A stretch of DNA of 64,000 bases from Sulfolobaceae archaeon (GTDB taxonomy: Archaea; Thermoproteota; Thermoprotei_A; Sulfolobales; Sulfolobaceae), in NCBI GenBank assembly GCA_038893355.1, contig JAWARQ010000005.1, positions 96,001 through 160,000 of the forward strand, given 5' to 3'. Position numbers and translations under genes: made by a program. Shown here piece by piece: positions 8,664 through 63,035 of the stretch (position 1 is its first letter; every line of letters begins with the position of its first letter). Below the pieces are notes generated by a model. That model was not told the origin of the DNA, searched no databases, and saw nothing but the letters and a program-made list of their open reading frames with translations.

Positions 8664-8752
8664 GCCGGGGTGGCCGAGTGGTCTAAGGCGGCGGGCCGCA
8701 GTACCATTGCCGAGACCCGTTATTTTCGCGGGTTCGAATCCCGCCCCCGGCT
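8664..8752 (+). tRNA. tRNA-Cys(GCA) with 13-nt intron (8702-8714) at position 37/38
   Basis: Acceptor GCCGGGG/CCCCGGC, U73, T-loop TTCGAAT, anticodon stem GCGGG/CCCGT, GCA at 8698-8700; position 33 is C. Confidence 0.9.
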
Positions 8753-10426: not shown

Positions 10427-10479
10427 AGTCAGAATTTCCAGCGGTCTTCATATCTCATGAGACCCTCTTTTCATCATCA
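10427..10479 (-). ncRNA. Box C/D methylation guide sRNA
   Basis: Minus strand reads ATGATGA (C), AAAGAGGGTCTC, ATGA (D'), ATGAAGA (C'), CCGCTGGAAATT, CTGA (D); canonical spacing with two 12-nt guides. Confidence 0.85.
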
Positions 10480-10514
10480 AAAAGATTAAAAGTTTCTATT
10501 GTTTAATATTACTT

Positions 10515-10590
10515 GCGGCCGTCGTCTAGTCTGGTCTAGGACGCCGGCCTCCCAAGCCGGTAATCCCGGGTTCAAATCCCGGCGGCCGCA
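10515..10590 (+). tRNA. tRNA-Gly(CCC)
   Basis: GCGGCCG/CGGCCGC acceptor, anticodon arm CCGGC-CTCCCAA-GCCGG, T-loop TTCAAAT. Confidence 0.97.
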
Positions 10591-10597
10591 TTGTGGG

Positions 10598-10840
10598 CTG
10601 AATTCTTTTTCCGCATTAATAGAAATCTCTTTATATTTGTTTATGTTACATTTCTATGACGAAAACGATCTCTCATACCGATGTGGGTTATGCCAAAAAG
10701 GATGAAAGTCGCGGAGATGTAAGCCAAATGTCGTTTAGCTGAAGTAGCCTCACGATCCACCTATAAGGTGGTTGAGGGCTAAGTCCCTACACTTAATGAC
10801 AGTGTCGTCATTAGGATATAAATTTATTAATTAGTGAGAA
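10598..10840 (+). repeat. Diverged tRNA-linked non-coding element, copy 1 (structured RNA or MITE-like)
   Basis: Collinear similarity to 53793-54037; hairpins at 10748-10777 and 10792-10815; TATA-like TTTATA near 10630. Confidence 0.65.
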
Positions 10841-11380
10841 CCCCCCATAAAGAGTAGATTCCAGATAAGGCTTTTGTATACCTTAGCTAGATATAAAAAT
10901 TTACATAATTATGACATTATGTACTATCTTCGTTCTAATCCCATTGAGAGGATAACGAGGTCATAATTTAGGTCAGAAAGATGACCCGAACATAAATAGT
11001 CCAATAAATATTACATGATAGAAATACTATATTAAAATTTTTATAATTAAAAATTATTTTATCTTTAATATAAAGAAAAATTAATATTTTATTATAATAT
11101 AAGATAATTTATTATAGAGAAAAACTGAATTTAAAAATATACTCTCATCTTTTATAAATTTATTTTTTCTTAATTCCTTATAAGTACTACTCAAGTTTTA
11201 ACTTAGATTTAAAATTCAAAACCTCGCAGAGTTTATGCTTACTTTTGAATAACCATTTATGAACTTGTCTATAGGTTTATTCAATTATTTACACTCGGTA
11301 CATTCTCTAGAGCTATAGTTTTAGTAATACCTAGAAATTATGATGGATTATATTAAATTAGTGAGAGCTAGGAGAAATAT

Positions 11381-53707: not shown

Positions 53708-53780
53708 AGCCGGGTCGTCTAGCGGTCAAGGATACGGGGCTTTGGCCCCCGTGACCAGGGTTCGAATCCCTGCCCGGCTA
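53708..53780 (+). tRNA. tRNA-Gln(UUG)
   Basis: A1-U72 acceptor AGCCGGG/CCCGGCT, anticodon arm CGGGG-CTTTGGC-CCCCG, T-loop TTCGAAT. Confidence 0.97.
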
Positions 53781-53792
53781 CTTTTACTAGTA

Positions 53793-54037
53793 CTAAATCA
53801 TTTTTCATGCAAACAGAGATCTTTTTATACTATTTTATTTTGAAATTCTGTTAAAAACGATGAACCCTTATACTAGTATAGGTTATGCCCAAAACAGTGA
53901 GGGCGAAAAGTGCAGAAATATGAGTCAATTTAACTAAAGGTATCTTTCGATCTACAATGACTGAGGCTTAAGTACCTTTTACTGTTACGAATTTAGGTCT
54001 GTTAGGGGCATAACATATAGTGCTACACTGGATCGTA
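53793..54037 (+). repeat. Diverged tRNA-linked non-coding element, copy 2
   Basis: Collinear similarity to 10598-10840; inverted repeat GTTATGCCC (53882-53890) / GGGCATAAC (54006-54014). Confidence 0.65.
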
Positions 54038-54340
54038 GATAATTAAAATAAAAAAGTGTATGGGCAAACCGTTACGTTCCTAGAATCATACATACTTACT
54101 GCTTTAACATCTCTCTATTAAGTAAACATAATATCTTCCATTATCTTCTCTTCAATAAGACAAGTTAGATTATCTTGAAATATAATAATTACTTTTATCT
54201 AATTTTGAGGTGGTAGTTCAAACCTATATTTAGATAATAACGAAAACATTTTATCGTGATCTCAAACTAATTATGTATAGAAATCTTATAGATAAGCTTA
54301 TAAGAATAAAAAGGAAAAGTTTTTAAGTGCTTATTAAGAT

Positions 54341-62903: not shown

Positions 62904-63035
62904 TGGGCCCGCGGGGATTCGAACCCCGGACCACCGGGTCTCTCCTTTCCAGATTTTATTCATCCCCTAAACAGGGTCAAAAGACCCGGTCTATTATCTG
63001 GAGCCCGGCACTCTACCTGGCTGAGCTACGGGCCC
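62904..63035 (-). tRNA. tRNA-Trp(CCA) with 58-nt intron (62940-62997)
   Basis: GGGCCCG/CGGGCCC acceptor, arm CCGGG-CTCCAG|A-CCCGG, central splice helix CTCC/GGAG. Confidence 0.95.

Follow-up and report, generated by a model that had tools for sequence, protein, structure and literature searches.

In TnpB elements, the 3′ end of tnpB together with the right end of the element encodes the scaffold of the omega (guide) RNA, and the IS607 transposase is usually described as nearly non-specific in its choice of site. IS607 elements have a GG target and GG termini, lack inverted repeats and target duplication, and carry short direct repeats (PMC6188088, in those sections of the paper that were available, in which tRNA is not mentioned). 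An omega-RNA scaffold of an IS607 TnpB is reported to end in ...UCGG (bioRxiv 10.1101/2023.11.20.567912, from an excerpt). SMN1 is a 320-bp non-inverted-repeat MITE of Sulfolobus islandicus, derived from orfB (TnpB) and mobilised by ISC1733 (PMC3718332, from an excerpt). SMN2 was described in 2013 on the plasmid pMGB1 as a relative of SMN1 and termed a 'mobile non-inverted repeat' element, and the accessible portion of that description attributes its mobilisation to an IS200-type transposase and not to an IS607 serine recombinase (PMC3839810). The element analysed here is very probably a copy of the SMN2 MITE of the Sulfolobales and, as such, a deletion derivative of an ISC1926-type insertion sequence (IS) of the IS607 family.

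Two copies are present in the window, by which is meant the whole 64,000-nt stretch of archaeal DNA that was analysed (32% GC, with GC-rich tRNAs, some of them intron-bearing), one behind a tRNA-Gly gene and one behind a tRNA-Gln gene. The features are as follows, where G006 denotes the genome of a relative and the relatives-only profile was built from 40 copies, all of them in other genomes.

10514..10591, + strand: tRNA-Gly(CCC), identified using ARAGORN; Rfam tRNA 65.5 bits at 10515-10590
10595..10797, + strand: SMN2-type MITE copy 1, 3′-truncated; relatives-only profile E 5.3e-41, profile positions 1-214 of 261
10595..10669, + strand: left end of copy 1, as delimited by aligning it with the corresponding end of the full-length G006 IS
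10595-10597, + strand: GG(G) core of copy 1
10599-10610 and 10621-10632, + strand: direct repeats of copy 1, of the RAATYC+T-run type
10630-10637, + strand: TATA-like box of copy 1, a predicted promoter
10656-10658, + strand: ATG of copy 1, remnant of the tnpA start codon
10670..10797, + strand: homologue of the tnpB 3′ end in copy 1, the omega-RNA scaffold region, with helices 1-5 of 6
10798..10916, no strand assigned: unrelated nested inverted-repeat MITE of ~115 bp, which replaced the end of copy 1
53708..53781, + strand: tRNA-Gln(UUG), identified using ARAGORN; Rfam 59.7 bits at 53708-53780
53790..54071, + strand: SMN2-type MITE copy 2; relatives-only profile E 6.3e-14 for 53793-53926

The initial annotation, made from the letters of the window, had listed a series of blocks shared in order by the tRNA-Gly and tRNA-Gln flanks, and this collinearity was confirmed by alignment: the local alignment score of the two flanks was 48, against a mean of 18.8 (sd 2.35) and a maximum of 28 in 500 dinucleotide shuffles and a maximum of 27 for other segments of the window (n=482). 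BLAST alone gave no link between the Gly and Gln copies at E<=10. Since both copies are matched by the relatives-only profile and their alignment score lies above the shuffles, the homology is real. Copy 1 also aligns to SMN2 of the virus SMV1 and to the ISC1926-like IS of G006. The TATA-like motif that had been pointed out is present, at the position given above, and the left ends, which had been placed ~8 and ~13 nt behind the tRNAs, in fact begin closer to them, after 4-5 nt at tRNA-Gly and ~9 nt at tRNA-Gln. Likewise, no transposase or integrase was found near either window copy, as had been stated; the neighbouring genes encode a TPP enzyme, an Lhr helicase, a DUF2204 protein, SUI1, TFB and an arginase. 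Just upstream of tRNA-Gly, on the opposite strand, lies a C/D-box sRNA-like sequence (10427-10481, -) with clear C, D′, C′ and D boxes, whose Rfam sR20 score of 38.8 bits is below the gathering score of 44. The intron-bearing tRNAs occupy 62904-63035 (-) and 8664-8752 (+); in one, 62 nt are inserted after the anticodon stem, and in the tRNA-Cys the insertion is of 19 nt.

The 3′ boundary of copy 1 was located using contigs of other SMN2 copies from two public sequencing runs, which match the Gly copy up to 10797 and then continue into the canonical right end; the breakpoint was therefore placed at the position at which they part. The unit of 10598-10840 proposed in the initial annotation thus had to be redrawn, the family homology covering 10595-10797 and the sequence from 10798 to 10916 being a different, nested MITE. 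One of the two hairpins reported in that unit, CCTCA-CCACC/GGTGG-TGAGG, is a conserved helix of the family, and the other, CTTAATGAC/GTCATTAGG, lies at the junction with the nested MITE and outside the family. The inverted arms of the nested MITE are at 10807-10825 and 10897-10915, and two further copies of it are found in this genome (C7:7987-8100 and C2:181389-181489); searches of phage and plasmid collections gave no match. At its terminus it is similar to the ends of an ~850-bp element at C2:188112-188960, which has inverted termini of the nested-MITE type. The SMN2 left-end stub that follows tRNA-Thr(cgt) (C6:~780) is cut by a terminus of the ~850-bp-element type, and such a terminus also directly adjoins the right-end fragment with which contig C2 begins.

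As a consequence of the replacement, copy 1 lacks helix 6 and the end of the scaffold, a loss of roughly the final 70 nt of the right end, the terminal ...CGG included. Copy 2 can be aligned with the family through to its terminal ...AAACCG, and both of its ends are recognisable; it is degenerate, with an internal insertion and a terminal branch length of 0.40 in the family tree. The Gly copy has lost its right end to a second MITE, the Gln copy has accumulated many mutations, and the pair is best taken as inert relics.

A profile search of the 1.40-Mb, 84%-complete assembly identified ~19 loci of the family, and matches were obtained in 24 of 41 genomes, this one included, with many copies in some, which supplies the copy count in the genome and its relatives that had been proposed as a check. 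An intact copy (C9:15888-16152) matches the feature annotated as 'transposon:MITE-SMN2' in SMV1 (HG322870.1, 33927-34177) with 78.7% identity over 98% coverage (E 6e-54). Plasmid pMGB1 of Saccharolobus solfataricus likewise contains a match to it, and one profile recovers both the window copies and the SMN2-matching copies. A MITE had been among the candidates named at the outset, and it is this candidate that the match bears out. An undescribed non-coding RNA or novel system had also been put forward and has to be given up, the family having been annotated as MITE-SMN2 in SMV1 and described on pMGB1 in 2013.

The ends were examined in 40 copies from other genomes. They start with GGG in 34 of 40 cases and end with CGG in all 40, the abutting duplication is zero in 29 of 40 and never exceeds 2 nt, and a terminal inverted repeat is absent (5.75/20 matches between the first 20 nt and the reverse complement of the last 20). 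In 34 of the 40 copies from relatives the left end carries two short direct repeats ~21 nt apart. The flanks of the 40 copies are unrelated, homology being confined to a unit of ~260 bp with sharp ends; a conserved TAM was sought in the 5′ flanks of these copies and only a mild A/T bias at position -1 was observed. An all-against-all BLASTP comparison of the ORFs within 5 kb of 15 copies yielded no shared family and hence no common neighbour gene. Within this genome the family is old and apparently stranded, and its copies have diverged, their terminal branches reaching 0.65. In three copies of this genome (L008:1501-1805, L007:1504-1806 and C2:197491-197716(-)) an extra segment of ~50 nt, absent from the others, follows helix 2; probably these copies go back to another deletion junction or another parent lineage.

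The position of the copies behind tRNA genes could also be explained if they were leftovers of viruses or plasmids integrated into tRNA genes, i.e. att-site flanks rather than transposon insertions. tRNA genes are the usual integration sites in the Sulfolobales (PMC3718332, in the portion available), and SMN2 copies are carried by a virus and a conjugative plasmid. Against this, no integrase, partial tRNA repeat or viral gene was found near either window copy, the element begins only after a complete tRNA and the tRNA's own short trailer, this trailer is common to the flank of the paralogous tRNA-Gly(tcc) up to the GG, and the homology stops at the sharp ends of the ~260-bp unit. We consider this origin extremely improbable. 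The paralogous tRNA-Gly(tcc) flank is uninterrupted and has a G run at the corresponding insertion point.

The parent of the MITE was traced through its ends, the first ~50 nt and last ~147 nt of which recur ~1.9 kb apart in relatives; the full-length relatives sharing both ends measure 1,925, 1,925 and 1,913 bp. In the G006 element, ORF1 encodes a 213-aa protein with HTH_17/MerR and Resolvase domains, which matches the structure of the catalytic domain of ISC1926 TnpA (6dgc) with an E value of 1.6e-82, and ORF2 encodes a 412-aa TnpB with domain PF07282, for which a sequence search against the PDB gave no match. The tnpA gene starts with GTG 63 nt from the left end, and the tnpB stop codon lies 10 nt before the terminal ...CGG. 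MITE and IS have in common a left part of ~75 nt, with the TATA box and the tnpA start, and a right part of ~190 nt, consisting of the 3′ end of tnpB and the right end. Part of the stretch equivalent to the scaffold falls inside an IS605 ORFB gene of STSV2. As the parent encodes a serine recombinase and TnpB, the IS110 bridge-RNA-like end that had been listed as a candidate was dismissed, the ends matching an IS607-type element instead; an orphan TnpB omega-RNA, another of the candidates, holds jointly with the MITE, most of the element being the scaffold-bearing part of a TnpB element that has lost its tnpB. The identity of the ends is the sole basis on which SMN2 would be assigned to a serine-recombinase IS607 parent, and the tie of SMN2 to an ISC1926-type IS607 element goes beyond the open literature consulted.

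An intact cognate tnpA or tnpB was searched for in this assembly, which is 84% complete, and was not found. The sole trace of a cognate tnpA is at C12:16098-16625, with 91% identity to residues 1-174 of G006 TnpA, and those of a cognate TnpB are confined to C-terminal remnants inside the MITEs. Beyond these residues the C12 remnant is disrupted, and the end of the contig holds an HTH-containing ORF that belongs to another element.

Six helices comprising 40 pairs were assessed in a 45-sequence alignment, in which 93.7% of cells were paired, compared with 34-47% when the partners were slid. Changes on both sides were seen in 11 of the 40 pairs against 4.5 in shuffles, none of 500 of which reached 11; this covariation is modest, and it is to be read with regard to the fact that the helices were taken from the tested sequences themselves and that the rows are kin, kinship inflating the shuffle control. 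With these limits, the pairing and the covariation support a candidate structured RNA. In single-sequence folding, the Gly copy by itself shows the self-folding originally ascribed to the element only weakly (z -1.60, equalled by 15 of 200 shuffles); for an intact copy z is -2.57 (3 of 200). In Rfam searches of the whole window only tRNAs reached the gathering score, and the + strand of 10592-10840 gave nothing at E<=10. In intact family members the scaffold may be placed, by homology, at the 3′ end of tnpB and up to the transposon boundary; in the copy at 10595-10797 the boundary and ~70 nt before it are absent. A frame of ~60 aa corresponding to the TnpB tail is retained in many copies, and it is not under coding constraint, as variation is without codon-position bias (0.39/0.42/0.42).

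Given such a structure, the tRNA-flank copies might be read as a host small-RNA gene family, that is, as exapted omega-RNA-like genes with their own promoter, serving a domesticated TnpB-like protein or host factor. The TATA box and the conserved helices carried by the copies would suit this reading, as would the presence in the genome of TnpB-like ORFs unrelated to the cognate TnpB (four PF07282 loci not detected with G006 TnpB) and the finding that the occupied tRNA-Gly junction is identical in contigs of 4/4 DNA sequencing runs, one of which may be the source sample. No empty site was found in the contigs of these runs. The tRNA-linked copies are, however, the most decayed, with branch lengths of 0.40-0.65 for those at tRNA-Gln, -Arg, -Ile and -Val; the Gly copy lacks the very end of the scaffold that would join the guide; a search of 40 other family genomes recovered the orthologous tRNA-Gly and MITE junction in none of them; and the tRNA-linked copies are scattered through the tree of mobile copies. 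A host RNA family is thus very improbable, and the copies are better regarded as decayed members of a mobile family.

The preference for tRNA 3′ flanks suggested in the initial annotation was upheld for this genome, in which 16 left ends were counted and 7 of them follow a same-strand tRNA at a distance of no more than 40 nt, compared with a mean of 0.008 under random placement (binomial P ~9e-20). The left end is ~10 nt or less from the tRNA end at Gly(ccc), Gln(ttg), Val(gac), Ile(gat), Arg(tcg) and Thr(cgt), the last being a stub of only 20 nt cut by another element, and 33-34 nt past the end of a tRNA with the anticodon CAU. The same arrangement of tRNA and SMN2 is seen at tRNA-Pro(tgg) in the genome G021. 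Metagenome contigs contain copies close to the consensus (branch lengths of 0.014-0.054) that lie 4-11 nt behind tRNA-Ala(tgc), tRNA-Ala(ggc) and tRNA-Leu(gag); added to the seven tRNA loci of this genome and the single one of G021, these three make eleven in all. The pattern scan of the metagenomes gave 43 matches, of which 5 were real SMN2 and the other 38 were chance or unrelated matches without SMN2 similarity; the scan required adjacency to a tRNA and therefore speaks for recurrence and not for frequency. A strict pattern of T-loop plus left end was found in 2 of 47 family genomes. This count speaks against a strong preference across the family, as do the missing tRNA-Gly junction in the 40 other family genomes, the low counts in relatives given below and the scatter of tRNA-linked copies over the tree. 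No report of a tRNA-flank preference of SMN2 or ISC1926 was found in the literature covered, subscription journals and supplements lying outside its scope.

Insertion may have occurred at GG sites anywhere, with only copies in harmless spots persisting in a small, dense genome, so that the tRNA linkage would be pure survivorship. This is quite possible, if somewhat short of probable. It accords with the rarity of tRNA adjacency among the best-matching copies of relatives (1 of 29 loci) and with the occurrence of the SMN2 arrangement at only 1 of 135 tRNAs in three complete genomes, with the fact that several of the tRNA-linked copies of this genome are its oldest, and with the presence of another mobile element, that of ~850 bp described above, 100 nt behind tRNA-Val(cac). 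It is at odds with the precision of the placement, 6 of the 7 left ends starting within ~10 nt of the tRNA end and all 7 being in the orientation of the tRNA, and with the near-consensus metagenome copies behind tRNA-Ala(tgc), tRNA-Ala(ggc) and tRNA-Leu(gag). Nor is the availability of G runs a sufficient cause, since non-ORF GG, GGG, TGGG or GGGG sites, taken as background, predict only 0.03-0.21 of 16.

It is tentatively suggested, as a reading less likely than not, that ISC1926/SMN2-type IS607 elements intrinsically prefer positions 1-11 bp behind tRNA genes, in the orientation of the tRNA. One possible cause of such a preference is that the word RAATCC in the T-arm, which is the same as that of the left-end repeats of the element, may recruit the serine transposase. 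Helical phasing of this word with the left-end repeats was considered and rejected, the hand-counted start-to-start spacing (~24-31 nt) not being constant, and for this reason the T-arm word remains only a lead. A tRNA-targeting subfamily was likewise rejected: 11 rows bear the label and 9 changes are needed to place it on the tree, compared with 10.3 on average after shuffling, where 71 of 500 trials needed no more; the label is unclustered.

Several tRNAs are directly followed by a hairpin module of a G run and a C run, which is seen at C6:68997-69050 and, on C1, behind tRNA-Met(cat) at 67198, tRNA-Arg(gcg) at 88668 and tRNA-Asn(gtt) at 209428. At tRNA-Gly(tcc) and tRNA-Arg(gcg) the module is succeeded by a T-rich stretch common to both, and the tRNA-Gly flank of G006 has the same G-run/C-run hairpin. 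In G021 and at two metagenome loci, SMN2 has C runs on its right flank, as if it had been inserted in the G run of the module. In two metagenome contigs (L161:1-350 and L179:80-400), an SMN2 element follows the same tRNA-Leu(gag), and the right flanks agree. The distance from tRNA to left end is 4 nt in one and 11 nt in the other, and the interiors of the elements differ; the pair may represent strain variants or repeated events at one site.

The origin and working of the element are proposed to be as follows. SMN2 is very probably a ~260-bp deletion derivative of an IS with a serine-recombinase tnpA and a tnpB, made up of two parts: a left end of ~75 nt, which has kept the GG core, two direct repeats, the TATA promoter of tnpA and its start codon, and ~190 nt of tnpB 3′ end and right end, finishing in ...CGG. 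TnpA supplied in trans would move such elements at GG sites, and the retained promoter would transcribe the scaffold into the flank, so producing a guide for TnpB, also supplied in trans. The repeated position 1-11 nt behind tRNAs would result from recurrent, mildly biased insertion together with long persistence where a copy does no harm, and in the orientation observed the T run of the left end would keep a terminator behind the tRNA.

The window elements are new, decayed members of a known MITE family, and the evidence does not support a novel system. An uncultured genome thereby gains decayed copies of an archaeal MITE already described, and a false lead towards a novel RNA is removed. Judged by its ends, SMN2 would be an archaeal, gene-less carrier of a TnpB guide scaffold with a predicted promoter. 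The use of tRNA 3′ flanks as a recurrent site for the family and the tie to ISC1926 are the points that reach beyond the literature consulted. If targeting is true, the family would allow the site choice of an IS607 transposase to be put to the test, and if the preference is intrinsic, tRNA 3′ flanks would be a safe harbour chosen by a prokaryotic transposase.

The closest described element is SMN2 of SMV1 and pMGB1, to whose family the intact copy of this genome belongs and with which the elements found here share a length of ~250-265 bp, the lack of inverted repeats and the occurrence as dispersed copies. Unlike published SMN2, the window copies are relics on the chromosome of an uncultured relative and have diverged, one being truncated by the nested MITE and the other degenerate, and the ends described here point to an IS607-type serine recombinase as the mobiliser, whereas an IS200-type transposase was suggested in the accessible part of PMC3839810. 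SMN1 shares with SMN2 its nature as a non-inverted-repeat MITE of the Sulfolobales with a TnpB (orfB) element as its source and differs, by its description, in parent IS and length. With ISC1926 and IS607 elements, the MITE shares the left and right ends, the GG...GG termini, the absence of target duplication and inverted repeats, and the short direct repeats; it differs from them in being gene-less, tnpA and most of tnpB having been deleted. In its gene-less state, in having kept the ends and the guide scaffold, and in that it would need TnpB in trans, it resembles the PATE-like IS200/IS605 elements of Geobacillus (bioRxiv 10.1101/2023.03.14.532601, from an excerpt). PATE-like elements have a Y1 tyrosine transposase, single-strand hairpin ends and a fixed TAM, whereas the SMN2 family is, by its ends, of IS607 type, is archaeal and has no conserved 5′ flank beyond GG.
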